From positions 1 through 62,897 of the forward strand of contig CATKXS010000006.1 in assembly GCA_949841045.1 (NCBI GenBank): a DNA stretch of 62,897 nucleotides, in the 5' to 3' direction. The stretch's first letter is position 1. The number at the start of each line of letters is the position of its first letter. The DNA is from an uncultured Clostridia bacterium (lineage in GTDB: Bacteria > Bacillota > Clostridia > Christensenellales > UBA1242). Both the position numbers and the translations under genes were made by a program. The notes under the pieces are model-generated. The model saw only the letters and a list, made by a program, of their open reading frames with translations. It was not told the origin of the DNA and did not search any database. This document shows, in pieces, positions 1 through 14,708 of this stretch.

Positions 1-37
1 GGGTTAGTCAGCCGTTCGAGTCGGCTTGGGAACACCA
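1..37 (+). tRNA. 3' half of tRNA-Arg(CCT), cut by the window start
   Basis: Perfect T-arm agccg-TTCGAGT-cggct, acceptor strand tgggaac-a-CCA. Anticodon inferred from the homologous copies at 1828/8821 (loop ct-CCT-aa followed by gggtt). Confidence 0.75.
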
Positions 38-72
38 AAAAAAACGGTCAATAATTAACTGACCGATTTTTT
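38..72 (+). terminator. Intrinsic terminator after the tRNA
   Basis: cggtca...tgaccg hairpin flanked by A and T tracts. Confidence 0.7.
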
Positions 73-125
73 ATTAGTAAAATTAAAATATGTTTGCTTA
101 AAATAAAATGTTTTTAGTTAAATTA

Positions 126-587
126 TTATAAAAAATCTGTATTTGTCACATCTTTCCATAAATCTTTCAAAAGTATTCCATCTATATTTGCTTTTTCGGC
201 AAGATCATCAATTGATTGATATGATTGTTCTTCGTGAGTGTTTATATTCAATAACATATCACATTTTTTAAAATCATTATATAAAATGCCATATCTGTTG
301 TTACGATAAGTAAACTCAACTTCACCATAATGTTTATATGCTTGAATAAAATCATCAAAATTGGCTAATACAGCAGATTTGCCTTCTTTAAATTGTTTTT
401 GAGCATTGTTAAGTGAGGGGATATTTCTTATCCCTGCGATGTCAGGATGCTGAAACGATTCTTCTGATTGTCTCCATCCACAAGTAGGACATTCATCTCC
501 GTTTCCGAACTGGCAAATTAGTATTTTATTTCCACATACATCACATTTTGAAATTTTGTTTTTTAAACTTGGATACTTAACTATCAT
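126..587 (-). CDS. CPCC-type Cys-rich protein, putative immunity protein (paralog 2)
   Basis: CDVCG...CPTCGW...N.PSLNNA motif; C-terminal GEVEF...ANIDG..LKDLW shared with 611-1063. Confidence 0.65.
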   Translation of the reverse strand: MIVKYPSLKNKISKCDVCGNKILICQFGNGDECPTCGWRQSEESFQHPDIAGIRNIPSLNNAQKQFKEGKSAVLANFDDFIQAYKHYGEVEFTYRNNRYGILYNDFKKCDMLLNINTHEEQSYQSIDDLAEKANIDGILLKDLWKDVTNTDFL

Positions 588-610
588 TTTTTCTTCTTTT
601 AATTAAATTG

Positions 611-1063
611 TTACATATATTTTGGATTTTCAACTTTATCCCATATATCTCTTACATATTCATTTCCTATTTTAGCGTTTGCGATAAAATCTTTTTTATC
701 TGAAAAGTAATAAATATTTTCTGGTGACCAGCCAAACTTTATTCCGCCTTCATTGTTAGCCCTATCCAACCAACAATTTATATTTTTATACCAAAATTCC
801 ATTTCCCCATACATATTAAAGCCGTCAAGGAAATCAATTAGCTCGGGTCTAAATTCCTTTCCTTCTTCATATAGTTTTTTTGCTTTGTTTAGCGAAATCA
901 GGTTGGGAAAAATTACATCATTAGGATGTTCGCTGATAAGGTGGCTATTTTTCCATCCACAATAACTACATTTCCCTTGTTCATATATATCAGCCATATA
1001 ACTGTGTCCACATACTTCACATTTCTTTTCAAATATTTTATCATAGATATTTTCCTTTTTCAT
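611..1063 (-). CDS. CPCC-type Cys-rich protein, putative immunity protein (paralog 1)
   Basis: CEVCG...CSYCGW...PNLISLNKA; AAGGAG RBS; paralogous to 126-587. Confidence 0.65.
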   Translation of the reverse strand: MKKENIYDKIFEKKCEVCGHSYMADIYEQGKCSYCGWKNSHLISEHPNDVIFPNLISLNKAKKLYEEGKEFRPELIDFLDGFNMYGEMEFWYKNINCWLDRANNEGGIKFGWSPENIYYFSDKKDFIANAKIGNEYVRDIWDKVENPKYM

Positions 1064-1075
1064 TTTTTTCTCCTT

Positions 1076-1381
1076 TTAACAATAATCCGGATTGGTATCT
1101 TCACCGTCAGGGCCCTTATACTCGCATCGATCTGCTTTACCTTTAGAATAATTCCAAAAATGATCATGTGGGAATTTATGTTTGTGTTTATTCCCATGAT
1201 CCCAATCTCTATCTCAAACTGCTGCACCATCTGGTCCATACCATCTTTGCTGTAAGAGTTTTCCTGTATCTTCATCATAATAGTCAGTACGGGAATTTGG
1301 GGTATCTTCGAGAGTGTCTATGTTACCACGATAAGGTCCAAAAACTTTTTTTATTCCGCCACTTGGTTTACACATTCCCAT
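1076..1381 (-). pseudogene. Orphan polymorphic-toxin-like domain with in-frame TGA at codon 56 (absent from the ORF track)
   Basis: Manual translation MGMCKPSGG...LLQQRWYGPDGAAV*DRDWDHGNKHKHKFPHDHFW...DYC; GAGGTGG RBS; TGA at 1214-1216. Confidence 0.6.
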
Positions 1382-1539
1382 AATGCCACCTCACAAAAGA
1401 AGAGGACATTAATATACTAATCATAAACTTTTCCTCCTTTTAATTTATTTCAAACAAAAGGAGCTTAAGTCAGAGTTAAACATTATGGGGCAAGGGTAAT
1501 GTTAACTAATTCTTGGGTTATTCATGTTTTGTCTTTTTT

Positions 1540-1635
1540 AATTGTAAGTTATCCAAAGCTCTGGGCAAACAATTATTTATTTGTATTATATCATATATTT
1601 TAAAAAAAATAAAAGAAAGTGTGACAAATATTTAT
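1540..1635 (-). promoter_or_regulatory. Extended -10 promoter plus conserved leader element (copy A)
   Basis: TGATATAAT on the minus strand (1585-1593); element repeated at 14850-14940. Confidence 0.5.
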
Positions 1636-1737
1636 AGGGAGAGATAGATTTTAACAAATGATATTTATAAAAATACTGGTATAATTTTGGTATAATTCTT
1701 GAATAAAAGTTGTTTAAAAATATAAAATTATTGGATA

Positions 1738-1911
1738 ATACGCATAGAATATGCTTAAAATTGCGAAAATTAATGCAAAAAATGAAGAAATTGCATAGAA
1801 ATCTCTTGATTTAGCATTCAAATATAATTCCTAAGGGTTAGTCACAGGTTTGAGTTGGATTTGGAACACCATAAATAAAAAACGGTCTTAGTAAATTTGA
1901 CCGTTTTTTAT
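1738..1911 (+). repeat. ~170 bp direct repeat copy A, containing a decayed tRNA-Arg 3' half (1828-1871) and terminator; att-like
   Basis: Aligns with 8730-8907 and, in part, with 1-72. Confidence 0.85.
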
Positions 1912-2043
1912 TTCATGATATTTTTAATTTTTAAATGAGTTAAAAACTGTTCCATGAAAATTTCTTATTATAATTTAATCTTGATAATAAAATTTTTTGT
2001 TTGACTTATACAAATTATAAGTTATAATTAATTGGGGGGAATT

Positions 2044-2718
2044 ATGATAATAGGTATAGAGGGAATGGATGGAAGTGGAAAAAGTTCTGTTGCAAAAGCG
2101 CTCGCTTTAAAATTTGGATATGAATATAGGGATATGCCAAATAAACATTTTTTGGGAATGTCAGATGAGGGATTCCAAAAAGTTTGTGAAAAGATATATA
2201 AATTCCCTGACAATACTATAAAAGGTTGGTTTTTTGGGTTTGGGAATATACTTGCTACACAGAATGTTGAGAATGGTGTGATTATTGATAGACATTTACT
2301 TTCAAATTATTTTTGGAATGGTGATAAAAAAAATATTGGAATGTATGAAGAATTACTAACAATTACAGGCAAGCCAGATTTAACAATAGTTCTTTATGCT
2401 GGAATGAAGGAACGAATGAAAAGAATCCGCAAAAGAAGTTCAACTGATAGAGATTTAGATGATGATGAAAAAAAAGTGTTGGGATATGACAAAATGATTG
2501 CTTTTGCAAAGCATGTAGCTCTTCCTTATTTAGTAATAAATACTGAAAAATATAATTTGGACAAAACAATTAAAATTTGTGAATGCTTAATTAAAAAAAT
2601 TGAAACAATGGATAAGGCAGAGGTCGTTGAATTTGTTAATAAAGTGAATCAGAGATTATATAGAAACAAAAAACAGCCATATTCAGAACTTCTTAACGAT
2701 GAACTAGAAAACGATTAA
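2044..2718 (+). CDS. Thymidylate-kinase-like NMP/dNMP kinase
   Basis: P-loop IGIEGMDGSGKS, DRH..S motif, PDLTIVL; G-rich RBS before ATG 2044. Confidence 0.8.
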   Translation: MIIGIEGMDGSGKSSVAKALALKFGYEYRDMPNKHFLGMSDEGFQKVCEKIYKFPDNTIKGWFFGFGNILATQNVENGVIIDRHLLSNYFWNGDKKNIGMYEELLTITGKPDLTIVLYAGMKERMKRIRKRSSTDRDLDDDEKKVLGYDKMIAFAKHVALPYLVINTEKYNLDKTIKICECLIKKIETMDKAEVVEFVNKVNQRLYRNKKQPYSELLNDELEND

Positions 2719-2774
2719 TATTATTTGCAAAAGACATAAATTTTTGATATAATCCATATCAAAAGGGAGAGGAT

Positions 2775-3251
2775 ATGTTTTTAGATGAAGAGGGATTAGA
2801 GCAATTAGATGAACTGATAAAAAAAGAGACAAATAGATTAAAACAAGCTGTTTCGCAAAAAGCAAATGCTTATCAAAATGATACAAACACGTGGCATGAC
2901 AATTCTGATTTTGATAATGCTACAGAAAAAGAAAATGCAGCTATAAATGAAATAAATAAGTTGATTGATATAAAAATAAATGCCGAAATAATTAAAAAAC
3001 ATATGCAGGCAGATAAAATAGATGTTGGCGATGTAGTAACAGTGGAAATAGATGAAGATGTTTTTGATGTAATTCTAACTGGTAAATATATTACTAATGC
3101 AGGTAATGGAGAAATAACATTAAATAGCCCATTAGGCGAAAATATTTACAAGAAGAGCATAGGTGATATTATTAAATATAAACATTTAGGCAATTCTTTT
3201 GTTGTAAAAATAATTGATTTTAAAAGAAGGGAGAGAGGTGATGAAAATTGA
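2775..3251 (+). CDS. GreA/GreB-family factor (variant)
   Basis: N-terminal coiled coil; C-terminal VGDVVTV...ITLNSPLG...GD; tip reads NTWHDNSDF rather than GDLSENAEY. Confidence 0.75.
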   Translation: MFLDEEGLEQLDELIKKETNRLKQAVSQKANAYQNDTNTWHDNSDFDNATEKENAAINEINKLIDIKINAEIIKKHMQADKIDVGDVVTVEIDEDVFDVILTGKYITNAGNGEITLNSPLGENIYKKSIGDIIKYKHLGNSFVVKIIDFKRRERGDEN

Positions 3252-3774
3252 ATATGAAATTAGATTTTTAAACATTGATAAAGATAAAATAATTAAAAAA
3301 TTGCAAGAACTGAAAGCTGAAGATAATGGTGAAAAACTCCAAATTCGAAAAACCTATGATTTGATTCAGCCTCAGCCAAACAGCTGGATAAGGTTAAGAA
3401 CTAATGGTGAAAAAACAACTTTAACTATTAAAGAAATTAAAACTGATAAGGTTGATGGCACTAAAGAACTTGAAGTTGAAGTTAGTGATTTTTTTGAAAC
3501 AGACGCAATTTTAAATAAAATAGGGCTAAAATCAAGAAACTTTCAAGAAAATAAAAGACATCAATATCATTTGAATGGGGTTGAAATTGATGTCGATTCT
3601 TGGCCTCTAATTCCAACATATTTAGAAATAGAGGGCGATAGTGAAGAGAGTATAATGAAAACTTGCAAACTTCTTGATTTAGACTATAATGCGTCTACTT
3701 CGATGGATGTGACAGATATTTATAATAAAGTATATAATATAGATTTACTAAGTCTTAAAGAACTAAAGTTTTAA
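3241..3774 (+). CDS. CYTH (triphosphate tunnel metalloenzyme) domain protein
   Basis: N-terminal EYEIRF (ExExK-like), WIRLR, LTIK, ELEVEV, KR, YLEIEG motifs. Confidence 0.85.
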   Translation: MKIEYEIRFLNIDKDKIIKKLQELKAEDNGEKLQIRKTYDLIQPQPNSWIRLRTNGEKTTLTIKEIKTDKVDGTKELEVEVSDFFETDAILNKIGLKSRNFQENKRHQYHLNGVEIDVDSWPLIPTYLEIEGDSEESIMKTCKLLDLDYNASTSMDVTDIYNKVYNIDLLSLKELKF

Positions 3775-3778
3775 AATA

Positions 3779-3808
3779 ATAAAGGAGGGTAAAAGCTCTC
3801 CTTTTTTA
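3779..3808. terminator. Bidirectional terminator between convergent CYTH and LysR genes
   Basis: aaggag-ggtaaaagct-ctcctt hairpin plus T tract. Confidence 0.6.
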
Positions 3809-3819
3809 TTTAGTTTTTA

Positions 3820-4725
3820 TTAAAGTAATCCTTTTGTTTCGCTTAAATACTCAATGAATGACTTGACTTTTGAATTGTTATTTTCTTTTTTAGTAACTAG
3901 GCATAATGGAATTGAAGGAAGTGGGGTATTAATAGTTATTTTGTATAAAGTCTCATTATCCAGCAATTCTTTTACTGCGCTTTCAAATACATAACCAATT
4001 ACATTTCCTCCAAGTATTAAGTCTATTGTAACTTGAGTTGAATTGCTTTGATAAAATGGGGTAAAACTTAGATTCTCTTTATTTAATAAAATGTTTAATG
4101 AATTTCGTATGTTAGAATTTTCTCTTGGAAGGACTATATGAAATTTTGAAATTTCCTCAAGATTTTTTACATTAGAGAAAAGAGAATGATTTTCTTTTGC
4201 ATATACAAAACACATTTTTTCAAGTTTTATTGTTTCTAAATCATAGTCATTGCTGTTTATACTAATAGGGGCGGTATCTATAATAAAATCAATTTCTTTA
4301 TTTTCTAATTTGTTGATTAAAATGGCTGTTGAGTCATCATGAAAAATTAATTTAACATTTGGATTCTCTTTTATGAAAGATTTAATTTTGTTTTTAAAGA
4401 AAAGATAAATATGACTTTGCATACCAAATGCAATTTGTTCTGTTTCTTTTTTATTTTCCATGATTTGATGGCACTCGTTCATTGAACTAATGATTTCTTC
4501 GACTTTAGTAAAAAGAAGAGAACCCTTATTTGTCATTTTGATGCCATTTCTATTCCTAATTATAAGTTCTTCTCCAAAATGTTCCTCAAGTTGTTTTATA
4601 GCATAACTTATAGATGGTTGAGAAATACAAAAATATTCACTTGCCTTAGTAAAACTTCCCAGTTTGCAAACTTCATAAAAATATTTTAAATTGTTAAAGT
4701 TCAAATTATATAAATTTATATCCAT
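3820..4725 (-). CDS. LysR-family regulator
   Basis: LKYFYEV...GSFTKASE..CISQPSISYAIKQLE HTH; divergent from the U32 operon. Confidence 0.92.
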   Translation of the reverse strand: MDINLYNLNFNNLKYFYEVCKLGSFTKASEYFCISQPSISYAIKQLEEHFGEELIIRNRNGIKMTNKGSLLFTKVEEIISSMNECHQIMENKKETEQIAFGMQSHIYLFFKNKIKSFIKENPNVKLIFHDDSTAILINKLENKEIDFIIDTAPISINSNDYDLETIKLEKMCFVYAKENHSLFSNVKNLEEISKFHIVLPRENSNIRNSLNILLNKENLSFTPFYQSNSTQVTIDLILGGNVIGYVFESAVKELLDNETLYKITINTPLPSIPLCLVTKKENNNSKVKSFIEYLSETKGLL

Positions 4726-4859
4726 GCTTTTATAATATATATTTATACAAATCCTTGTCAAGAAAAATTACATAAAATGTATTTATGAATAAATAAATAT
4801 TTTATATTTGACTTTTATATTTATGTGTGTAAAAATAAACAAAATGAAATGGGGGGATA

Positions 4860-6935
4860 ATGGAAATTTTATATCCTGTAGGAAGCAATATATATATTGA
4901 AAATGCAATAAAAGCTGGTGCTGATGCAGTGTATGGTGGATTTCAACTTTTTAATGCAAGAAATAAGGCGAAAAATTTTACTGTTGATGAGCTTATTGCA
5001 GCGATTGATAAATGTCATGATAATAATTTAAAATTTTATTTAACTTTAAATACATTAATGTTAGATGAAGAGATAAAAGACGTAATTGAGACTTTAAAAA
5101 AATTTAAGATAAAGCCAGATGCTTTTATTTGTGCGGATATTGGTCTTTGTGAAAACTTAATGAAGGAATTTCCAGATGTTGAACTCCATGCATCAACTCA
5201 GTTTGGAGTGGCAAATCTTCAAGATGCACAGTTTGCTGAAAAAATTGGATTTAAAAGAGTTATACTTGCGCGTGAAATGACTGAAAGCGAAATTAATTAC
5301 ATAACTGAAAATTTAAATATAGATACAGAGGTCTTTGTTTGGGGCTCTCAATGTGTTAGTTTTTCGGGCTCTTGTTTTTTAGGCTCTTTAATGAATGGAG
5401 GAACTGCAAATAGAGGGAAATGTATAACGTTATGTAGAGATAAGTATCTTTTTAATCATGTAAGTGAGATGGGTAACTATTTGTATGTGCCCGATTTAAA
5501 TTGTATTAATATTGCTAAAAAGGGAAATGCAGTATCATTAAAAATTGAAGGAAGAAGAAGACCTGTCGAACAATTGAATAAAGTCGTAAAAGAAATCAAG
5601 GGAGAAATTGATTCACAAAAAGAAAATGGATTTTATTTAGGAGAGAACATAGAGAAAAATCATTTATATGAAAGAGTAAACAATCGACAAAAATTTCTCT
5701 TTAAACATGATAAAAACTTTCCTATAAAAGAAGAGGATGTTTGGATATTTAAGAAATATAATGAATTTTATTATCTACCTGAAAACATAAGTCCAAATAG
5801 TGAGAGCCTTTATTTATATTCAGAATGGAAACTTCCTTTTAAACCTAATTTAAAAAATCTGTCTATGGAAATCAATCAAAAAGGTGGAATAGTGCAGAGT
5901 GTAATGTTTTTAAATTACAAAGGTGAAGCAAGATATTTTTACCTTAAAAATAATGAGAGTAAATATATAAATATAGAATCAATAAAGGAATTATATAAAA
6001 TTTCAAATATAAATATTTATAGCATAAAATTTAAAAAAGAAAGTGAAAATCAAAATATTTTAATTTCTTATCAAATGGTTAAAGAAATAGAAGATTATGT
6101 ATTAAAGTTATCAGAAATAGAGAGAAATTTTTCTTATGATAGTTGCGGTCTTGATAAGGTATACATTGAAACTGAGAATCTCAATCTTGCTTATGAATTA
6201 GCAAAGGAGAATATTTTAACCATAGTGAATTTGGAATCTTTTGAAATGTTCGAGAAACTTGAAATTAGCAGATTTACTGATAAAGAAGCAACTATTTTTA
6301 AACTTCCATTTTTCAATTTTAAAAATAAAGATATGCAGTTTTTATTAAAGAAAATTGAGGGCTTTGGTGTAATGATAACTAAATTTTCACAAATTGAAGA
6401 CATTAAGAAGTTTAAGTTTAGCAAAATTTTTGCAGATTATCTTGTTCCAGTATGGAATCATAATTCAAGAGAATTTTTAGAAAAATGTGATGTAGAAAAC
6501 TTTTGTGCAAGTCCAGAACTTAGTTTTGAAGAAAATATGAAGATTTTTAATAATGTGAATGAGGTATGCCTGTTATTAGGTGGTAAACCGACGTGTGTTT
6601 ATTCTAGGCAGTGTTTTAAAAAGGCCATAGGCTGTTCAGTTTGTCGCCAATCTGAAAAAAGTTTAAAGAATGTTGATAGGGATGTTGACTTTGAATTAAA
6701 TTGTTATGCTGACCATAGAACTATGAATTATAAGAATAATATTTTGAATCCTTATAATTGTAAAAATAAAAATGTATCTTACAGATTTGTAGAAAGAGGC
6801 TTGAGTATCCAAGACATAAAAGAAATCTTAGACTGTGTGCATAAAGATGGATATTATGAAAAATTAAGAAAACATAAATTATTTAAAAATTCATTTTCAA
6901 ATATGTTAGAGGAGGATAAAAGAATTGAAAACTAA
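4860..6935 (+). CDS. U32-family (RlhA/TrhP/UbiU-like) Fe-S protein with long C-terminal extension
   Basis: GADAVY, FNAR, LHASTQ, RVILARE, EVFVWGSQC-x6-C-x15-C-x3-C, LKIEGR. Confidence 0.85.
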   Translation: MEILYPVGSNIYIENAIKAGADAVYGGFQLFNARNKAKNFTVDELIAAIDKCHDNNLKFYLTLNTLMLDEEIKDVIETLKKFKIKPDAFICADIGLCENLMKEFPDVELHASTQFGVANLQDAQFAEKIGFKRVILAREMTESEINYITENLNIDTEVFVWGSQCVSFSGSCFLGSLMNGGTANRGKCITLCRDKYLFNHVSEMGNYLYVPDLNCINIAKKGNAVSLKIEGRRRPVEQLNKVVKEIKGEIDSQKENGFYLGENIEKNHLYERVNNRQKFLFKHDKNFPIKEEDVWIFKKYNEFYYLPENISPNSESLYLYSEWKLPFKPNLKNLSMEINQKGGIVQSVMFLNYKGEARYFYLKNNESKYINIESIKELYKISNINIYSIKFKKESENQNILISYQMVKEIEDYVLKLSEIERNFSYDSCGLDKVYIETENLNLAYELAKENILTIVNLESFEMFEKLEISRFTDKEATIFKLPFFNFKNKDMQFLLKKIEGFGVMITKFSQIEDIKKFKFSKIFADYLVPVWNHNSREFLEKCDVENFCASPELSFEENMKIFNNVNEVCLLLGGKPTCVYSRQCFKKAIGCSVCRQSEKSLKNVDRDVDFELNCYADHRTMNYKNNILNPYNCKNKNVSYRFVERGLSIQDIKEILDCVHKDGYYEKLRKHKLFKNSFSNMLEEDKRIEN

Positions 6936-7635
6936 AAGTATTTGGGGGAATCCACCTAAAAGGTTGTATAAATTGTTAAATATTATAAAGTCTGAGAATA
7001 GAGAGAATCCCGAAGTTTGTATAGTAGGTTGCTCTGATGGGAAATTTTTAATGCCATTTGCTAGAGCTGAAATAAAAGTCACAGGTTATGATATTGATGA
7101 AATAGCGTTATATGGTGGTGAAAAACTTTTTCCAGTTAAAGAAGAAAATAAAATATATGCATATAATGCAAAATTCAAGAGTAAAGACTATCCTCTTGAA
7201 AAAAGAAGAGTTTATGGTGTTTGCGAACGATTGCAATTAGAAAATTTGGAAGCGTTTGCAAATGTAAAACTTTTAGATTTTTATAGAAACCCTCCAAATG
7301 ATAAGTTTGACCTTGTTTTTACAAGCTGTTCGTTGCATTATTCTAAAAATGCAGAATTTAGTTTGCTAGACAAAGTGCAAAAGCTTGGAAGTATAGTTAA
7401 AAAGGGTGGTTATCTTTATGTTGATTATATGATGGCTATAGATGAAGATGATTATGAAAATTATCCAGATAGCAAATTTTTTAGGAAAGGGCAAATAAAA
7501 AATATGCTTAGCGATTCTTTTGAAATAATTTCAATAAAAGAGAATTCTTATCCTAGTTTTGAAGGTGCTCATGTAGATTGTGTAAAAGACCATTTTCACA
7601 GATTTGGCTATATTTTTGCAAGGAGAATAAAATGA
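6925..7635 (+). CDS. Class I SAM-dependent methyltransferase
   Basis: VCIVGCSDGK motif I, VTGYDID, FDLVF...SLHY, KKGGYL. Confidence 0.75.
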   Translation: MKTKSIWGNPPKRLYKLLNIIKSENRENPEVCIVGCSDGKFLMPFARAEIKVTGYDIDEIALYGGEKLFPVKEENKIYAYNAKFKSKDYPLEKRRVYGVCERLQLENLEAFANVKLLDFYRNPPNDKFDLVFTSCSLHYSKNAEFSLLDKVQKLGSIVKKGGYLYVDYMMAIDEDDYENYPDSKFFRKGQIKNMLSDSFEIISIKENSYPSFEGAHVDCVKDHFHRFGYIFARRIK

Positions 7636-8387
7636 GTTTTGAACTTTGTTGGAATATTACAGCTAAGTGTAATCAAGGTTGTAAATATTGTCATAGATTT
7701 TTAGGCTTAGATAATCTTACTATGGAAGAGAATCTTAAGATTTTAAATAATATTATTGAAAGTGGATGTGATAATATTACCTATACTGGTGGAGAAGCTC
7801 TTTTAATAGATTATTTAGAAGAACTTTTATCGATTTCTCATTCACACAAAATAAAAAATAAACTTATTACAAATGGTATTATCTTGACTGAAGAAAGGTT
7901 TTCTGTGATTAAGGATAAGATTGATAAAATAAATCTATCTATTGATAGTTTGAATATGGATACAAATATCCTCTTAGGTAGAGGAGATAGGCATGTCGAA
8001 ATTATAAAAAGTAGAATAGAGATGATAGAGAATAGTAATGTGGAACTATCTATAAATTCTGTTATGACAAAGTTAAATATTTATGATTTATTTGAACTAG
8101 GCGAGTATATATCAGATAAGAATATAAAACAATGGAGAATTTTTAAGTTTATGCCATTAAGAGAGAAGGCAAAAGAGAATGAAGATGAATTTTCAATATC
8201 AAGAGAAATATTTGATGAAAATATAAGAAAACTAAAAGAGATGTTTCCTAAGTTAAATATAGTGACTAGAGATGTTAGTGAGTTTGAAAAACTTTACATA
8301 TTAATACTTGCCAATGGAGATATTTATCAAACTATAGAAGGAAAAGATATTAAAAAAGGAAATGCTCTTAAAGATAAAATTTTCTAA
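7632..8387 (+). CDS. Radical SAM enzyme, viperin-like
   Basis: CNQGCKYC, TGGE, ITNG, LSIDS..TN..LGRG, INSV..N, WRIF, F.IS...F, YILI..G; no SPASM cysteines; ATG overlaps the upstream stop. Confidence 0.8.
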   Translation: MSFELCWNITAKCNQGCKYCHRFLGLDNLTMEENLKILNNIIESGCDNITYTGGEALLIDYLEELLSISHSHKIKNKLITNGIILTEERFSVIKDKIDKINLSIDSLNMDTNILLGRGDRHVEIIKSRIEMIENSNVELSINSVMTKLNIYDLFELGEYISDKNIKQWRIFKFMPLREKAKENEDEFSISREIFDENIRKLKEMFPKLNIVTRDVSEFEKLYILILANGDIYQTIEGKDIKKGNALKDKIF

Positions 8388-8399
8388 AGAGATTATTAA

Positions 8400-8730
8400 A
8401 TGCTTTTGGAATTTAATGGGAGAAGAGTAATTGTTATGATAGGTAGTAATTGTCGTGTCAAATGCTGACACTGCTAAATTTCTTATAGGGGGGGGAGAGA
8501 ACTTTATGAGCTTATTTCAAATCTAAAGAACAAGTATAAGATGCTTATAAACGGAACTGAACCATTAATACATAAGAGTTTTGCCAAGTTATAAACTTGC
8601 GGGATATAAATCCCCAATTACTAATGGGTTGTTTTTTAAGGATAATCTAAATTATCTTGATGAATTGAAAGAAAATGGTGTTGACGAAATTAGAATTTTT
8701 AACCACTTTGATATGGAAAATATTGAATGA
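8400..8730 (+). pseudogene. Degraded second radical SAM gene
   Basis: MLLEFNGRRVIVMIGSNCRVKC*HC* (CxxxCxxC with stops); later INGTEPL and PITNG fragments; ends at the repeat. Confidence 0.6.
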
Positions 8731-8907
8731 TACGCACAAAATATGCTTAAAATTACGCAAATTAATGCAAAAAATGAAGAAATTGCATAAAAATCAACTT
8801 AATTTTGCATTCAAGTATAACTCCTAAGGGTTAGTCACAGGTTTGAGTCGGCTTGGGAACACTATAAATAAAGAAAGGTCATAGTAAATTATGATTTCTT
8901 TTTTTTA
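8730..8907 (+). repeat. ~170 bp direct repeat copy B with decayed tRNA-Arg 3' half (8821-8864)
   Basis: ctcctaagggttagtcacaggtttgagtcggcttgggaacacta; upstream ~90 bp matches 1738-1827. Confidence 0.85.
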
Positions 8908-9287
8908 TGTTGTAATATACAATAGGGTTAATGCTTTTTCTTGTATGGAAGGAATTAAGCGGCTGTGAAATTTAAGTGTAAATGTTCGGGCGCAATTCCT
9001 TTTATTTTCAAATTTAACGTCTTTTCAGCATAGTTTTGCAGTAATCGCGATTTTCAATTTAGTTATAGGTAAATGACAAGCTTTAAATTGAGTCTGAGTT
9101 TTGGGAATGGAGAGTTGACGAACTGCACAAAATATTGAGACAGTCTTGTTGAATATGGGTTGACAAATGTTTATCTATATATTAAAATTTAGTTGCATGA
9201 ATTTGCCTTTAAAAGTGAATATGGCGTTTGTGCAGTAAAAATCATATTTAATATAATAAAAGAAAATTTTGATTAAAGGAGTTTTGA

Positions 9288-12200
9288 ATGAAAAAGATAA
9301 ATAGTACAGCAAAATTTACCTTAATATTTTTAGTGGCTATGATGACTGTTTTTATGTTGGCTGGAATACTATTTAGTACAAATAGTTTTAGTTTTGCCAG
9401 TGAAAACAATTTAAAAGTTGCTGATGAAAATGAAGGGGATGTGGATATATTTCTTTCTGATTTGTCAAATAGTTATCTAACTGCAGGATATTTGCCTAGT
9501 GGTGTTGTTAAAGACCAAACTAATACTGGTGCAATACTTTCAGTAAAGATAGATGGAGCAGCAACCTATTTTAAAAAAGGCCTTTATACTCCAACAGAAA
9601 AAAGGTTTATCTACAATATAAGCAATTTAAATTATAAATACTTTTCTAGTTATATTGGCGTACAAAGCGGGACTTCTGCAACTGGGAAGGCTGTTTTTGG
9701 TATTGATTTATCGAACTCAGCAACAAGCGGTTGGGTCACAAAATATTCAAGTGAAGACATGACTTCAAATGATAGTGCAAAAAATATTCTCGTAAATATA
9801 GAAGGTTATTCTTATATGAGAATTAGAGCGGATTTCGCAAGTGGCACTAGAACAACAGCGCAAGCAGTATGGGCAGATGCTAAATTTACAGACAATGAAT
9901 CAAATGAGTTTAAACATTTGGTTAAATCTGTCGCTGAATATGATGAAATACTAAAAAATGATTTTCAGAATGCTGACTTGTCTAATAAAGATTATGAACT
10001 TGCACTACTTCAACGCAATTATGTAAGCAAGTTTGGAACAAATGGCTATGCCGCTTTGCATAATTACATTTTATCTAATGATAACAATGCTCAAGCATTT
10101 TATTGGCTTTTCAACGATGTAGATGTTCTTAGAATGTATACAACAGGTGGAGTGCCAGAAAATGTTGATATTTATAAGAAAAATAGTACATATAATTTAG
10201 CAAGTTGGTCAAATTCTTTAAGAGTATTGACAAGTCTATACACAGCTTATAAAGATGACCTTGCAGATGATAGTCTTTCAGAACTTGGAAATCGTAGAGG
10301 GGACATTTATCAAAAGATGATGATTTCTCTTTCACTCACACATTCAAAGAGGGTTCGTTTTTGGATTTATGACATGGGTCCAAACATGGAATTTAATAAT
10401 ACAAGCAATGATTCAAATGCGGTTGTAAGATATGCAGTTTTTAAAAAGATGTGGCTTGCTGGCAAACTAGACAACAAAGTGTTTGAGAATATCGAAGTTG
10501 AAGAAATGCGTTTAATTATGAACACTTTGCTTCCAGATAATGAAATAGAATGGCTTTTGGATTATTGGCAATGGAAGGGGACTAAAGGACCTTATTCACA
10601 TATGGCATATTTGCACGCTTGGGAATTTTGGTCAGGTGCTCCTCAATTTTATGACCCAGCAAAAAAAGATTATTATTATGAAAAATATAGATTAGATGGT
10701 TATGGAATTGAATATAAGAAATATATAACACATGGATGGATGATGTTTGAAACAGGTGGTGTTTGCTGGAACATGTCAAACATGGGTTCAAATATGACAG
10801 CTGTTTGGGGACACCCATCAACACCTCTTGGACAATCAGGTTATGTAGAACATGTGGCTTATGCAGATTATTATAAAAATGCAAATGGTGAAGGATATTG
10901 GGCATTGACAAATGATGTCTTTGGCTGGATAAACACAAACTTTAGAAACTTCAATAATCTTGGAAGCGCTGGCGGTTGGTATACCTCAAGAGCAATGCTT
11001 GACTGGGGAACAGGTTCTTACACAAGTTTTCAAAGCGGAACTTATTTGATTTTAGCTCAAGCAGCAATGAATGATTTCGCTAATTATGAAAAAGCAAAAG
11101 AATTAAATATACTAGCCGGAATTTATTCAGACGACCTTGTAAAACAAGAAGAAATTTATCGTCAAGCATTGAATGCTCAAAAGATAAATCTAGATTCTTG
11201 GTTTGGAATTATCAATAACTATGTAGCACAGCAGAAATCGGGTGAAGATTTTATAAATCTTGCAAGAGAACTTGCTGATGCTTTAAAATATTATCCTCTC
11301 CCTATGTATGATATGATGAGATTGATTGCTAGATATGCCTCTCAACCTGAATATTTGGCAGTTATTAATATGATTCAAGCGGAAAATTTGAAACTTGCAA
11401 GTAAAGCAATAGAATCGCAAGTTTTGCAATCAAACATTACAAGAATAATGGCAAATTATTTGCTTGGAAGAGTGGATACAGAAGTAGCTAAATTTGAGTT
11501 TGATGGTGATGGCGCTGGCACATTATCTCTTGGAAATATGTATGAAACCTCTCAGCCAACTTGGGAATATAGCTTAGATGGCGGAAATAATTGGATTATA
11601 ACCGATGAAAAAGTTCTTCAATTGACAAGTGAACAAGTTGAACTTATCAATACAGAGGACGATATTAAAGTGCATATTATTGGAACTGAAAGAACAGAAA
11701 AAAATACTTATGTTATTGATATAACAAAATCAAATGCTCCAACAGGTTTTTATGTAAATGACTGGGAAAACAAAGTTTTCGGACTTGACGAGGCTATGGA
11801 TTGGAGATTTAAGGGCGACCTCTCTTGGACTAGATATTCAAAACAGCAGCCAGATTTAACGGGTGATAAAATAATAGAAATCAGAAGACGAGCAACAGGT
11901 ACAGTGATGGCAAGTGACGAGGCAAGCTATACACTAACTTCTGCTGGTGAAGACGACTCTCTGAAAAAATATATTCCAATAAAACATTTATCTATATATG
12001 ATGTTTCATCTGAAGCTATAAAAAATCAGGGTGATGCAAAAAATATTATAGATGGAAATTATAATACAAGGTGGCACTCCGACTGGAACGGAAATGATAG
12101 AGAAAGATATATTATTATAGAATTTAGTCAAGCGTTTGCTCTCACCGGTATGGACTATATACCTGCTGGTGGTGGTAACGGGAAAATCCTTCAAGGCAAG

Positions 12201-14708
12201 ATTTATGGAAGTGGAACAGGCGAGGAGTGGACAGAGATTGCAAGTGTAGATTGGCAAAACAATGAAGATTTGAAATCTGTAGAATTTTTAAATAATGAAT
12301 TAAAATTGAAGTATATAAAAATTGTGGGCGAAAAATGCTCTGGAAGCAAAAGTTTTATAAGTGGAAGAATGTTTAATTTCTATCATAATGAAATTGCTTC
12401 TGCAAATGATAAGCCTACGGCAGCTTTGGAATATAGTACAAAAACGCTCACTAATGGTGATGTTACAGTAAATTTAGTAAACTCAAGTGCAAGTATTATT
12501 GTGACTAATAATAATGCGAGGACTTCTTATACATTTACAAAAAATGGAAGCTTTACTTTTGAATTTAAAGACGCAAATGGGCTAACTGGTTCTGCAACAG
12601 CTGTTGTAGACTGGATTGATAGAAAAGCGCCTACTGCTGAGGCAAGCTATAGTACAACTGACAAGACTAAAAATAATGTCGTTGTGACATTAACTTTCAG
12701 TGAAGATGTTGTAATAAACAATAATGGAGGCAGCAACACATACACATTTACATCAAATGGTGAGTTTACCTTCTACTTTACTGACAAAGCGGGAAATCAG
12801 GGCTCTTACACCGCGAAAGTGTCAAATATATATAACACTCGACCTAATATTATAAAAAAGGAATTCAACACGACTGAACCCACTAAAGATGATGTTATAG
12901 TTACATTCACTCTTGATAGAGCGGTTAGAGAATATTCTACTTTAACTTATAGCGAAACTTTTACTTATACATTTACAAGCAATACTTCACGAATCTTTAT
13001 TTTCTACGATGAACTTGGCAACAGTATTGCAAATCAAGTTAATGTAAGTTGGATAGATAGGACACCTCCAATTGGAAATATAGTTTATAGCACGCTTAAT
13101 CCAGCAAATAAAGTTACTGCATATATTGAATTTAATGAAGTGAATGTATCCATCATAAATAATGGAGGTCAAAATTCATATACTTTTACTGAAAATGATG
13201 AGTTTACTTTTGAATTTGTAGATAGAGCAGGCAACAAGAATACTGCAACGGCAAGAGTAAATTGGATTGACAAGACCGTTTATGCACCTGAAATTATTTA
13301 TAGTACTACAACTTTTACAAATAAAAATGTAACAGCTTCTCTTAGAGTTGATGGAAAAATAATTGATACTTTTGTCTTTGAAGAGAATGGAAAACATGTT
13401 TTCAATTATACTCAAAATGGAAATACTTATTCTGCAACAGCACTAGTAAGTTGGATTGATAAAACAGTGCCAACTGCAACAATCACTTATAGTACATTAA
13501 ATTGGTCTAGATTTGATATAACAGCTTCGGTGGCATTTGATGAAACAGATGTAGTAATAACTAATAATAGAGGCTTAAACACTTATACATTCAGTGAAAA
13601 TGGAACTTTTGAATTTTCATTTAGAGATAAGGCTGGAAATGTAGGTACAGCTTTGGCAAAAGTTACCTGGATTTATAAAAGTGTTCCTAAAGCAATTATT
13701 TCTTACAATATAACTCAAAAAACAAATAAAAATGTAATAGCAAGTGTTGTTGATTTTGAACGTCCTGAAAATGTTGAGGAAAATTCTTTCAATATTTACA
13801 AAAAGTCTATAACCATGACTAATAATTTTGGAAGCAAAAATCATACTTTCACTGACAATGGAACGTTCACATTTGAGTTTGTGGATGGAGCTGGAAATGA
13901 AGGTAGGGCAGTTGCCGCTGTTGATTGGATTGACAAAGTTGTTCCAACCGCAAAATTAGATTACAGTACTTATGACATTACTAGAGACCCTGTAAAAGTT
14001 GTCATAACTTTCGATAAAGAAAATGTGGAGATTTTAAACAATAACGGTTTAAATAGCATTACATTTGAGGATAATGGCACTTATACTTTTGAATTTGTAG
14101 ATGAACTTGGCAATTTAGGTTCTGCAGAAGCAGTTGTCAATTGGATAAACAAAAAGTTACCTGTGGTAAACATTGTTTATGATATAACTGAAAAAACAAA
14201 TAAAGATGTTGTTGCGACAATTTCTTTTGAAGAGAGTGATGATGTTGTCATTGTAAACAATGATGGAAACAACAGTTATACTTTTACTGAAAACGGTACA
14301 TTCACATTTGAGTACGTTTATGGAGATGGAAATTTTGCAAGTATAACTGCTGAAGTGACTTGGATTAAAAAGAACATTACTATTAAATATTATGAAAGCG
14401 ATAATTTAGTAAATGAAGATGTAATTTCTTTTGGTTCTGGTTATCAAATATTATTTAAAGCAAATGAATATAAAGATAAAGAATTTCTTTATTGGATAAG
14501 CGGAGAACAAATTTATCGCGAGGGTGATATTTTAAGTCTTGACGATGACCTAGTATTGAATGCTGTATATAAAAATATAAATGACAATACTGAAGGCGAT
14601 TCTGAAAAGACTAATATCGGTTTGATAGCAGGAATAACTGTTGGTGCAGTTGCTTTAGTAGGTGTTATAGTTATAGTAGCAATTGTAATAAAAAAGAAAC
14701 ATAAATAA
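9288..14708 (+). CDS. 1806-aa surface protein: signal peptide, NPCBM, putative Cys-His catalytic domain, F5/8C (CBM32), tandem Ig-like repeats, C-terminal TM anchor
   Basis: FLSDL...YIGV...AVWADAKF (NPCBM); GGVCW...EHVAY; IIDGNYNTRWHS (F5/8C); repeated YTFTENGTFTFEFVD.AGN...WIDK; TM followed by KKKHK. Confidence 0.8.
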   Translation: MKKINSTAKFTLIFLVAMMTVFMLAGILFSTNSFSFASENNLKVADENEGDVDIFLSDLSNSYLTAGYLPSGVVKDQTNTGAILSVKIDGAATYFKKGLYTPTEKRFIYNISNLNYKYFSSYIGVQSGTSATGKAVFGIDLSNSATSGWVTKYSSEDMTSNDSAKNILVNIEGYSYMRIRADFASGTRTTAQAVWADAKFTDNESNEFKHLVKSVAEYDEILKNDFQNADLSNKDYELALLQRNYVSKFGTNGYAALHNYILSNDNNAQAFYWLFNDVDVLRMYTTGGVPENVDIYKKNSTYNLASWSNSLRVLTSLYTAYKDDLADDSLSELGNRRGDIYQKMMISLSLTHSKRVRFWIYDMGPNMEFNNTSNDSNAVVRYAVFKKMWLAGKLDNKVFENIEVEEMRLIMNTLLPDNEIEWLLDYWQWKGTKGPYSHMAYLHAWEFWSGAPQFYDPAKKDYYYEKYRLDGYGIEYKKYITHGWMMFETGGVCWNMSNMGSNMTAVWGHPSTPLGQSGYVEHVAYADYYKNANGEGYWALTNDVFGWINTNFRNFNNLGSAGGWYTSRAMLDWGTGSYTSFQSGTYLILAQAAMNDFANYEKAKELNILAGIYSDDLVKQEEIYRQALNAQKINLDSWFGIINNYVAQQKSGEDFINLARELADALKYYPLPMYDMMRLIARYASQPEYLAVINMIQAENLKLASKAIESQVLQSNITRIMANYLLGRVDTEVAKFEFDGDGAGTLSLGNMYETSQPTWEYSLDGGNNWIITDEKVLQLTSEQVELINTEDDIKVHIIGTERTEKNTYVIDITKSNAPTGFYVNDWENKVFGLDEAMDWRFKGDLSWTRYSKQQPDLTGDKIIEIRRRATGTVMASDEASYTLTSAGEDDSLKKYIPIKHLSIYDVSSEAIKNQGDAKNIIDGNYNTRWHSDWNGNDRERYIIIEFSQAFALTGMDYIPAGGGNGKILQGKIYGSGTGEEWTEIASVDWQNNEDLKSVEFLNNELKLKYIKIVGEKCSGSKSFISGRMFNFYHNEIASANDKPTAALEYSTKTLTNGDVTVNLVNSSASIIVTNNNARTSYTFTKNGSFTFEFKDANGLTGSATAVVDWIDRKAPTAEASYSTTDKTKNNVVVTLTFSEDVVINNNGGSNTYTFTSNGEFTFYFTDKAGNQGSYTAKVSNIYNTRPNIIKKEFNTTEPTKDDVIVTFTLDRAVREYSTLTYSETFTYTFTSNTSRIFIFYDELGNSIANQVNVSWIDRTPPIGNIVYSTLNPANKVTAYIEFNEVNVSIINNGGQNSYTFTENDEFTFEFVDRAGNKNTATARVNWIDKTVYAPEIIYSTTTFTNKNVTASLRVDGKIIDTFVFEENGKHVFNYTQNGNTYSATALVSWIDKTVPTATITYSTLNWSRFDITASVAFDETDVVITNNRGLNTYTFSENGTFEFSFRDKAGNVGTALAKVTWIYKSVPKAIISYNITQKTNKNVIASVVDFERPENVEENSFNIYKKSITMTNNFGSKNHTFTDNGTFTFEFVDGAGNEGRAVAAVDWIDKVVPTAKLDYSTYDITRDPVKVVITFDKENVEILNNNGLNSITFEDNGTYTFEFVDELGNLGSAEAVVNWINKKLPVVNIVYDITEKTNKDVVATISFEESDDVVIVNNDGNNSYTFTENGTFTFEYVYGDGNFASITAEVTWIKKNITIKYYESDNLVNEDVISFGSGYQILFKANEYKDKEFLYWISGEQIYREGDILSLDDDLVLNAVYKNINDNTEGDSEKTNIGLIAGITVGAVALVGVIVIVAIVIKKKHK

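Follow-up and report, generated by a model that had tools for sequence, protein, structure and literature searches.

Introduction

The closest described relatives of the enzyme considered here are the viperins (RSAD2 and the prokaryotic pVips), radical S-adenosylmethionine (SAM) enzymes known for making 3′-deoxy-3′,4′-didehydro-nucleoside triphosphates (ddhNTPs). In the available part of their report, Shomar et al. describe a C-terminal extension in all viperins, and four eukaryotic viperins fused to a triphosphatase or cyclase domain (10.1101/2023.09.13.557418). A 2026 preprint, in its accessible portion, describes an RxxxY clamp in the tail as conserved and required for activity, and gives Lys119, Lys219 and Arg244 (human numbering) as other phosphate ligands (10.64898/2026.09.10.750538). 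Here we describe a gene cluster built around a viperin-like radical SAM enzyme (rSAM) at positions 2044–8730 of a 62,897-nt stretch of DNA (the window; contig CATKXS010000006.1 of assembly GCA_949841045.1, from an uncultured Clostridia bacterium). The window forms contig C6 of a genome assembled in 34 contigs (1.16 Mb), with an estimated completeness of 95%. Its rSAM belongs beside the viperins rather than among them, and the evidence supports the surrounding genes being a real, conserved and horizontally spread unit.

Seven intact genes, followed by a broken second rSAM gene, lie between degenerate 3′ halves of tRNA-Arg(CCT). The kinase, Gre-like and CYTH genes form operon 1 and the U32, methyltransferase (MT) and rSAM genes form operon 2, both on the forward strand, with a LysR gene on the reverse strand diverging from operon 2. 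A first-pass annotation, made by a model from the letters of the sequence, had placed these genes, the overlaps in operon 2 and the broken second rSAM gene here, and open reading frame (ORF) calls, Pfam and blastx bear it out. The features of the cluster are:

2044–2718, forward: TMK-like (dTMP kinase/CMPK2-type) nucleotide kinase (PF02223, 44.5 bits against a cut-off of 27)
2775–3251, forward: Gre-like RNA polymerase secondary-channel factor (PF01272, 36.9 bits against a cut-off of 26.9)
3241–3774, forward: CYTH protein (triphosphate tunnel metalloenzyme, TTM), short form (PF01928, 39.2 bits against a cut-off of 23.2)
3781–3804, forward: candidate terminator-like hairpin between the convergent CYTH and LysR genes
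3820–4725, reverse: LysR-type regulator (HTH_1, 62.8 bits; LysR_substrate, 69.6 bits)
4860–6935, forward: U32-family Fe-S protein of 691 aa, of an uncharacterised subfamily (PF01136, 149 bits against a cut-off of 22.4)
6925–7635, forward: class I SAM-dependent MT
7632–8387, forward: viperin-like rSAM of 251 aa (PF04055, 64.6 bits; SPASM match absent)
8400–8730, forward: remnant of a second rSAM gene, its first third, cut off at the repeat (blastx)

The kinase ORF opens at TTG 2032, and the ATG at 2044 is preceded by a GGGGGG ribosome-binding site. The Gre-like and CYTH genes overlap by 11 nt, U32 and MT by 11 nt, and MT and rSAM by 4 nt (ATGA); the MT is translationally coupled to both of its neighbours. 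Promoter-like and terminator-like sites showed no excess over shuffled sequence, and such sites are hence candidates only. In the remnant the CxxxCxxC motif is broken by TGA, with TAA immediately after and then a frameshift. Pfam found no match in the remnant when it was read with X at the stops; by blastx it corresponds to residues 1–109 of an rSAM of about 300 aa that is intact just 3′ of the viperin-like gene in loci L029 and L055 (E 4e-15 and 2e-13) and is a generic rSAM by NCBIfam.

A sister radiation of the viperins

By profile, sequence and structure, viperins come first among the matches to the window rSAM. The enzyme matches the PADLOC pVip model with an E value of 1.1e-41 (141 bits), and a PDB sequence search ranks viperins best (E 4e-13, versus 6.5e-7 for MoaA). 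An AlphaFold model built from 14 sequences (predicted local distance difference test, pLDDT, 91.7) returns viperins at the top of a Foldseek search (5vsl, mouse viperin, and 6q2p), with template-modelling (TM) scores of 0.86–0.87 and an E value of 3e-15. The enzyme is thus modelled with the viperin-like partial-barrel fold and its CxxxCxxC motif. The motifs SIDS..TN..GRG, INSV..N, WRIF and Y.LI..G are present in the window enzyme, and most are kept in its relatives. In calling the enzyme viperin-like on the strength of such motifs and the missing SPASM domain, the first-pass annotation was right as to fold, best profile matches, motifs and domain content; membership of the viperin clade proper did not hold.

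The first line of evidence for this separation is the profile score. Against the NCBIfam model for prokaryotic viperins (NF038283, viperin_w_prok) the window rSAM reaches 125.6 bits, under the curated cut-off of 180. From 1.84 billion representatives, 298 clusters (50% identity) matched the family profile at E ≤ 1e-30; among the 126 full-length nearest representatives only two exceeded the viperin cut-off (280.7 and 259 bits), the remaining ones that match viperin_w_prok at E ≤ 1e-25 scoring 93–171 bits. NCBI-named pVips score 244–320 bits over the full PADLOC profiles, versus 124–168 for the window rSAM family, whose alignments end 14–35 positions before the profile end.

Tree position tells the same way. 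In a maximum-likelihood tree of 155 sequences rooted with six MoaA sequences, the 21 pVips included, all from one search, form one clade (support 99, stem 0.66) within an 86-sequence group, and the window family lies in a separate 41-sequence group (support 90). The pVips were monophyletic once more (support 100), with the window family outside, in a quick tree search on 60 sequences under the C20 mixture model.

The third line comes from a joint alignment of the 21 pVips with 37 window-family members. The family retains CxxxCxxC, GGE, NG, SxDS, N..GRG, INxV..N, W(K/R)xF and Y.L..G. Missing from it are residues that are invariant or nearly so in pVips, namely H22 (the base-side His), K65 (mouse K120), R184 (mouse R245), E228 and N230, together with the Arg of DPxGRF, Y256 and the entire C-terminal Y..F..R.G.Y tail, which appears as gaps in the alignment. 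Of mouse H79, K120, K220, R245 and K247, only the equivalent of K247 (R169) is kept; about 60% of family members have a basic residue at the K220 position, and the other ligand positions are replaced. The family has invariant residues of its own: C6, W7, H21, R22, F23, K77, H121, R177, R213 and D239.

Score, tree position and residues together identify the rSAM family as a distinct sister radiation of the viperins, large and unnamed, with LysR and CYTH as its core partners. It probably has another substrate, or another way of holding its substrate. In the strict sense, therefore, the enzyme falls outside the viperin clade, and since it also lacks the clamp and most phosphate-binding residues, a ddhNTP product is unproven and cannot be assumed. 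The earlier interpretation is thus supported in part: right about the unit and its viperin-like centre, wrong if read as naming a viperin.

These findings bear directly on the possibility of an ordinary pVip defence system, in which the rSAM would make ddhCTP, ddhUTP or ddhGTP from a nucleoside triphosphate (NTP) supplied by the kinase, the other genes being passengers or minor helpers. The pVip profile match and the modelled fold would suit it, and the kinase, in keeping with the nucleotide-kinase neighbour noted in the first-pass annotation, matches the PADLOC model of the viperin-associated kinase, VakA (E 1.4e-9). Some sister loci, moreover, hold only the rSAM, LysR and a CYTH-like/AbiQ gene, beside MazF and recombinase genes. 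We nevertheless regard this explanation as very unlikely, as the family scores below the curated cut-off and below the range of true pVips, stops before the profile end, lies outside the named-pVip clade in both trees, and is missing H22, K65, R184, the DPxGRF Arg and the RxGxY tail that are invariant or nearly so in the 21 pVips; the clamp is reported to be essential in the available text of 10.64898/2026.09.10.750538, and the linkage of U32, MT, Gre-like and CYTH genes described below is too tight for passengers.

A recurrent and linked gene set

The first-pass annotation had proposed gene-neighbourhood co-occurrence across genomes as a check, and this was carried out. The rSAM alignment was used for a pattern scan of 185,579 species genomes; 107 loci were confirmed, and genes were counted in the best 80 of these by tblastn and ORF clustering. 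Kinase, U32, MT and rSAM genes occur together in 19 of the 80, U32 and the TMK-like kinase being found in the same 19. Of these full-set loci, 18 have a CYTH gene, 17 a Gre-like gene and 14 LysR; further genes are a second MT (11), a Cof-type HAD phosphatase (10), a metallo-β-lactamase-fold (MBL) hydrolase (7), DAHP synthase (5) and an APH-type kinase (5). Outside the 19, a Gre-like gene was seen only in L072, a truncated contig. Across all 80 loci, LysR is present in 63, the CYTH gene family (F4) in 30, a further family (F3) in 36, and one or other of F4 and F3 in 61. An independent scan of metagenome contigs, with the Gre-like gene as its anchor, found the cluster set in 6 of 46 loci of at least 8 kb, in the order LysR-HAD-kinase-MBL-Gre-U32-(DAHP synthase)-MT-rSAM-MT2-CYTH.

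Because it recurs in many unrelated contigs, the gene set goes beyond chance association. Record titles assign the 19 loci to Bacilli (8), Clostridia (3), Bacteroidia (3), Alphaproteobacteria (3) and unclassified bacteria (2), labels that come from metagenome-assembled genome bins and are as reliable as those records. Judged by their substitutions, all seven window genes are under purifying selection, with ratios of nonsynonymous to synonymous rates of 0.08–0.16 against locus L006 (77–88% protein identity). As homology with L006 stops about 45 nt past the rSAM stop codon, the remnant and the right-hand repeat belong to the window alone. Elsewhere the cluster is fuller, with the HAD phosphatase, a second MT and the MBL phosphodiesterase-like gene. 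A search of sequencing runs listed no RNA runs; the DNA runs with a share of at least 0.3 were metagenomes, some labelled mouse gut.

Control by LysR, with the gene present in so many of the loci (63/80), is also what might be expected of an inducible catabolic, salvage or cofactor pathway for a nucleoside-like or aromatic gut compound. Hosts with reduced genomes (1.16 Mb) would fit such a role, as would the presence of U32 proteins in quinone biosynthesis, described in the accessible text of PMC10990095. ORF calls and Pfam, however, found no transporter, glycosidase or phosphorylase gene in the window cluster, the Gre-like gene is a consistent member (17/19 loci), and the cluster is rare, with a viperin_w_prok match at E ≤ 1e-25 in none of 400 other genomes sampled from the phylum; the chance that the pathway is of this kind appears slight.

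Gene fusions tie the rSAM to its neighbours. It is fused to an MT in L055 (509 aa), to a PfkB kinase in P0121 and L031, and to LysR in P0166, P0180, P0204, P0229 and P0233; rSAM-receiver fusions also exist. Many Clostridia loci combine an rSAM bearing a C-terminal receiver domain with LysR and an AbiQ/ToxN-type domain that is fused or adjacent to a divergent CYTH-like domain, and these also hold a Spo0A-like regulator, MazF and a serine recombinase. The AbiQ/ToxN and CYTH-like domains lie directly upstream of LysR and the rSAM-receiver gene in L007 (7702–8856) and its relatives, and in L043 (7639–8241 and 8363–8938). The AbiQ domain matches the PADLOC AbiQ model (E 4e-45), and the adjoining domain resembles CYTH by hhalign (probability 85%, E 6e-6). 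A ToxN neighbour as a property of the whole of F3 was ruled out, this family being a mixture of AbiQ-only, CYTH-like-only and fused proteins. Another locus type reads CYTH-rSAM-LysR-(CMP kinase fusion)-MBL-CYTH-like; in L077, positions 11784–13274 encode a 496-aa fusion of CMP kinase with an Fe-S/radical-SAM-like part, with an MBL hydrolase gene and a CYTH-like gene next in line. In the rSAM tree, from which several U32 loci were dropped by the ORF filter, U32-linked rSAMs are not monophyletic, so the U32/MT/kinase/Gre module is either ancestral or has moved between lineages.

Such architectures raise the question of signalling, with the rSAM and CYTH protein making a nucleotide-derived messenger, LysR or CYTH-like domains serving as its sensors and an MBL phosphodiesterase breaking it down. 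The rSAM-LysR and rSAM-receiver fusions, the AbiQ toxin domains fused to a CYTH-like domain beside the rSAM, and an Apyc1-like MBL gene in 12 of the 80 loci are all in its favour. The top NCBIfam model for the window CYTH protein is likewise that of class IV adenylate cyclase (TIGR00318, the cyaB equivalog), although its 39.2 bits fall under the cut-off of 57.95. The window cluster itself has neither an effector gene nor an MBL gene, and its U32/MT/kinase module looks biosynthetic, which makes signalling quite unlikely as the function here.

Enzymes of a putative nucleotide pathway

Kinases are the most constant accessory enzymes of the rSAM loci, being of the TMK/CMPK2 type, a CMP kinase fusion (L077), or PfkB beside or fused to the rSAM (L031, P0121). 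The window kinase scores 44.7 bits against the dTMP kinase model TIGR00041, under its cut-off of 83.25, and its P-loop, DRH motif and LID arginines are kept in 19 homologues. Together with the HAD phosphatase, CYTH and MBL phosphodiesterase-like genes, the kinases point to a phosphorylated nucleoside as the substrate, most likely a pyrimidine.

According to the accessible text of PMC10990095, the activity proposed for U32 proteins is an O2-independent, prephenate-dependent hydroxylation of aromatic or pyrimidine rings, and most subfamilies are uncharacterised. The motif CX6CX15CX3C (C165, C172, C188, C192) of the window U32 protein is conserved in 20 sequences, and a second four-Cys group lies in the C-terminal half (C585, C592, C595, C615). 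Its best NCBIfam match is TrhP (NF011996), at 146.1 bits over the N-terminal 208 residues only and under the cut-off of 534. In five of the 19 full-set loci a DAHP synthase gene (NF006421, 360 bits versus a cut-off of 335) lies directly 3′ of U32, which fits the proposed prephenate-dependent hydroxylation (PMC10990095, as far as its text was available).

A U32 protein and an MT might instead modify tRNA, rRNA or mRNA to give a 5-hydroxy or 5-methoxy pyrimidine, with CYTH as an RNA 5′-triphosphatase, the kinase and HAD phosphatase acting on RNA ends, and the Gre-like factor on nascent RNA. The characterised U32 members RlhA and TrhP do act on RNA (PMC10990095, PMC6599085 and PMC5727448, in the parts available), and TrhP is the very model that the island protein matches best. 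Yet the genome has three U32 genes, and the other two match TrhP far better, with 353.7 and 201.6 bits where the island copy has 146. Modification or repair of RNA also sits poorly with the patchy, island-borne distribution, with kinases of NMP-kinase and PfkB types, some fused to the rSAM, and with an operon under LysR control, and we give it a low probability.

For the MT, the nearest ESM Atlas clusters are generic or TehB-like methyltransferases only. PDB sequence searches with the MT, the kinase and the U32 protein gave no matches. The CYTH protein has the tunnel residues E4, E6, R51, R53, K64, E76, E78, E129 and E131 conserved; among PDB entries, it is most closely related to an archaeal triphosphatase.

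A Gre-like factor with an altered tip

The Gre-like protein aligns along the whole length of GreA (TIGR01462 positions 14–148) at 53.7 bits, under the cut-off of 139. Its model (pLDDT 85) matches GreA, GreB and Gfh1 with TM scores of 0.65–0.72, and it is predicted to have the full Gre fold of coiled coil and C-terminal domain. The tetrad WHDN (W40–N43), within G(D/N)xWHDN, is invariant in 22 of 22 cluster-associated Gre-like proteins, and the model places it in the tip loop (residues 35–43) joining the two coiled-coil helices. A separate housekeeping GreA, with the tip GDLSENSEYD, is encoded elsewhere in the genome, and several loci carry two Gre-like paralogues.

Genes for WHDN factors also recur away from the cluster: after pheS/pheT, beside an ABC transporter, and beside a hybrid histidine kinase and an AMP-binding enzyme. 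The fourth context is a conserved cluster of its own, headed by two WHDN Gre-like genes in tandem; genes for a WYL regulator and a Vut_1 transporter come next, and then those for a phosphoribosyltransferase, a guanylate kinase, a FemAB-like protein and a fusion of TMK with a methyltransferase. This arrangement lies at about 8000–14000 of the metagenome contigs L166, L168, L171, L172, L174, L177, L182 and L191. The tandem-WHDN context being again nucleotide-centred, these observations are suggestive of WHDN factors accompanying unusual nucleotides.

The island and its borders

The cluster lies in a region with a G+C content of 0.22–0.31, behind a tRNA-Arg(CCT) gene whose 3′ half is repeated at the borders:

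1–44, forward: tRNA-Arg(CCT) 3′ end, reference copy of the repeated half (the gene begins on contig C20)
1725–1897, forward: direct repeat copy 1, left border of the cluster segment (repeat comparison and sequence)
8717–8890, forward: direct repeat copy 2, right border, with a degenerate tRNA-Arg 3′ half at 8828–8871

Positions 1–37 of the window are the 3′ end of the intact tRNA-Arg(CCT) carried by C20. The last 120 nt of C20 (19851–19970) are identical to window 1–120, and the two contigs are therefore probably adjacent, with the tRNA-Arg gene spanning the join. The 44-nt unit occurs three times, at 1–44, 1835–1878 (80% identity) and 8828–8871 (84%). Copy 1 of the long repeat consists of about 100 nt of non-tRNA sequence, the degenerate tRNA-Arg 3′ half (1835–1878) and a terminator-like tail, and the two long copies are 88–90% identical. 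These tRNA-Arg(CCT) 3′ halves confirm the tRNA-derived direct repeats, and with them the island, of the first-pass annotation. ARAGORN found no tRNA in the island part of the window; a Rfam scan of window 1–12000 at E ≤ 1 gave two chance-level matches only, the repeats fitting no RNA family.

Two segments stand in tandem behind the tRNA, the second of which holds the cluster, and the ORF list contains no integrase-sized ORF in either. The first, from the tRNA to the first repeat, encodes two paralogous Cys-rich CPCC proteins on the reverse strand (126–587 and 611–1063; PF14206, 32.6 and 25.6 bits). In another species of the genus (genome G084), the same tRNA-Arg holds a different element of about 6.8 kb (L112, G084:C5:66500-76500), with a tyrosine integrase, a helix-turn-helix protein, a SHOCT protein and a Rep protein, which ends in a 96%-identical tRNA 3′ half. 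The rSAM is found in three of 41 related genomes, the window's own included; of the other two, one carries a fragment (92% identical) at the end of a contig and one a homologue with 36% identity. The tRNA-half repeats, this patchy distribution and the other island at the same tRNA in G084 support the cluster being island-borne and mobile.

Two very large ORFs lie beyond the island, at 9288–14708 (1806 aa) and 15116–19237 (1373 aa), the former with a signal-like segment at its N-terminus and a membrane-anchor-like segment at its C-terminus.

A proposed pathway

The genes with their conservation and linkage are shown here, as are the modelled folds of the rSAM and the Gre-like protein; from these we infer a substrate, a series of reactions, a target and a role in conflict with phages or competitors. 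The proposal is of a mobile, LysR-controlled pathway to a pyrimidine nucleotide, modified on the base and possibly on the sugar, that would act on transcription with RNA polymerase as its target; we would put its probability a little short of even. The TMK/CMPK2-like kinase would provide the phosphorylated substrate, on which the viperin-like rSAM would perform radical chemistry, perhaps viperin-like on the ribose; with the triphosphate clamp absent, the substrate must be bound differently than in viperin. The U32 Fe-S protein would hydroxylate a ring carbon without O2, the coupled MT would methylate the hydroxylated position, and CYTH would work on the triphosphate end. With its WHDN tip in the secondary channel of RNA polymerase, the Gre-like factor may remove or exclude the analogue, as self-protection, or may cooperate with it. 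The first-pass annotation had proposed a hydroxylated, methylated and dehydrated nucleotide, with CYTH and Gre in processing or self-protection roles; these points are likewise inferred.

Several observations weigh against this proposal. A product, activity or phenotype is known for no member of the cluster. Since the rSAM has neither the viperin phosphate-binding residues nor the RxxxY clamp, an NTP cannot be taken for granted as its substrate. The accessible text of PMC10990095 gives RNA and quinones as the known substrates of U32 proteins, as opposed to free nucleotides, and chorismate synthase, chorismate mutase (CM_2) and NDK were not found in the window's genome (95% complete), so that the source of prephenate for U32 is unexplained. 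Most WHDN Gre-like genes lie in other contexts, 39 of the 46 Gre-anchored metagenome loci of at least 8 kb being without the cluster, so the Gre link is not exclusive. The window version is itself reduced, having lost the second rSAM and having neither the HAD phosphatase nor the second MT of fuller clusters. As for a part in conflict, the PADLOC library gave no matches for the U32, CYTH, Gre-like and LysR proteins, a scan of IMG/VR viral contigs with the rSAM alignment found no relatives, and LysR control or LysR-enzyme fusion is a feature more usual in metabolic operons than in known defence systems.

A more specific version would see the cluster as a producer-plus-immunity pair, in which the non-canonical viperin-like enzyme, the anaerobic U32 hydroxylase and the MT make a pyrimidine nucleotide modified on both base and sugar that blocks transcription, and the WHDN Gre paralogues, as dedicated secondary-channel factors, excise or exclude it in the producer. 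We consider this version unlikely; if it held, the tandem-WHDN, nucleotide-type cluster would point to Gre-guarded nucleotide-analogue systems as a general class in gut bacteria. Were the proposed pathway true, viperin chemistry would reach past ddhNTPs to a sister family with a different grip on its substrate (298 clusters), a U32 anaerobic hydroxylase would be linked for the first time to free nucleotides, a family of Gre paralogues would gain a role, and the product would be a candidate for a natural inhibitor of transcription made by gut anaerobes. Even with details wrong, the conserved set of seven to twelve genes is a well-defined, testable pathway.

Comparison with known systems

The first-pass annotation knew of no described system with this full combination, and none was found in full-text literature either, a search whose scope did not extend to supplementary tables; the supplementary viperin lists of 10.1101/2023.09.13.557418 may include family members.

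Like GreA, GreB and Gfh1, the Gre-like protein has the whole-length fold (TM 0.65–0.72) and the PF01272 C-terminal domain. It differs in carrying G(D/N)xWHDN instead of GDLSENSEYD, with the spacing of acidic residues altered and no acidic DxxE at the tip, and relative to GreA it is a paralogue that coexists with the housekeeping protein (53.7 bits versus the TIGR01462 cut-off of 139). The CYTH protein shares PF01928, above its cut-off, and the acidic and basic tunnel residues with TTM enzymes such as Saci_0718 (PDB 7ns8); it is distinguished by a score below the cyaB equivalog cut-off, and its relatives by a long insertion (about 265 aa in total).

With the U32 hydroxylases TrhP, RlhA and UbiU/UbiV the island protein has PF01136 and the four-Cys motif in common; an MT directly downstream is a further likeness, and the DAHP synthase beside U32 in five loci fits prephenate use. 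It differs in its score (146 bits versus the TrhP cut-off of 534), in a long and unique C-terminal half with the second four-Cys group, and in its linkage to nucleotide kinases and an rSAM, not to RNA or quinone genes.

The viperins remain the nearest point of reference. The eukaryotic fusions of viperin to a triphosphatase or cyclase domain provide an independent parallel to the rSAM-CYTH pairing described here. The window rSAM shares with pVip and RSAD2 the partial-barrel fold, as modelled, the series of motifs from CxxxCxxC to W(K/R)xF, and a neighbouring kinase of the TMK/CMPK2 type. It differs in scoring below the viperin cut-off, in lying outside the named-pVip clade, and in having no RxxxY clamp, with the His and most of the Lys and Arg ligands of the NTP replaced; the window family also has a CWNIT..CHRF signature of its own and a constant association with LysR and CYTH.

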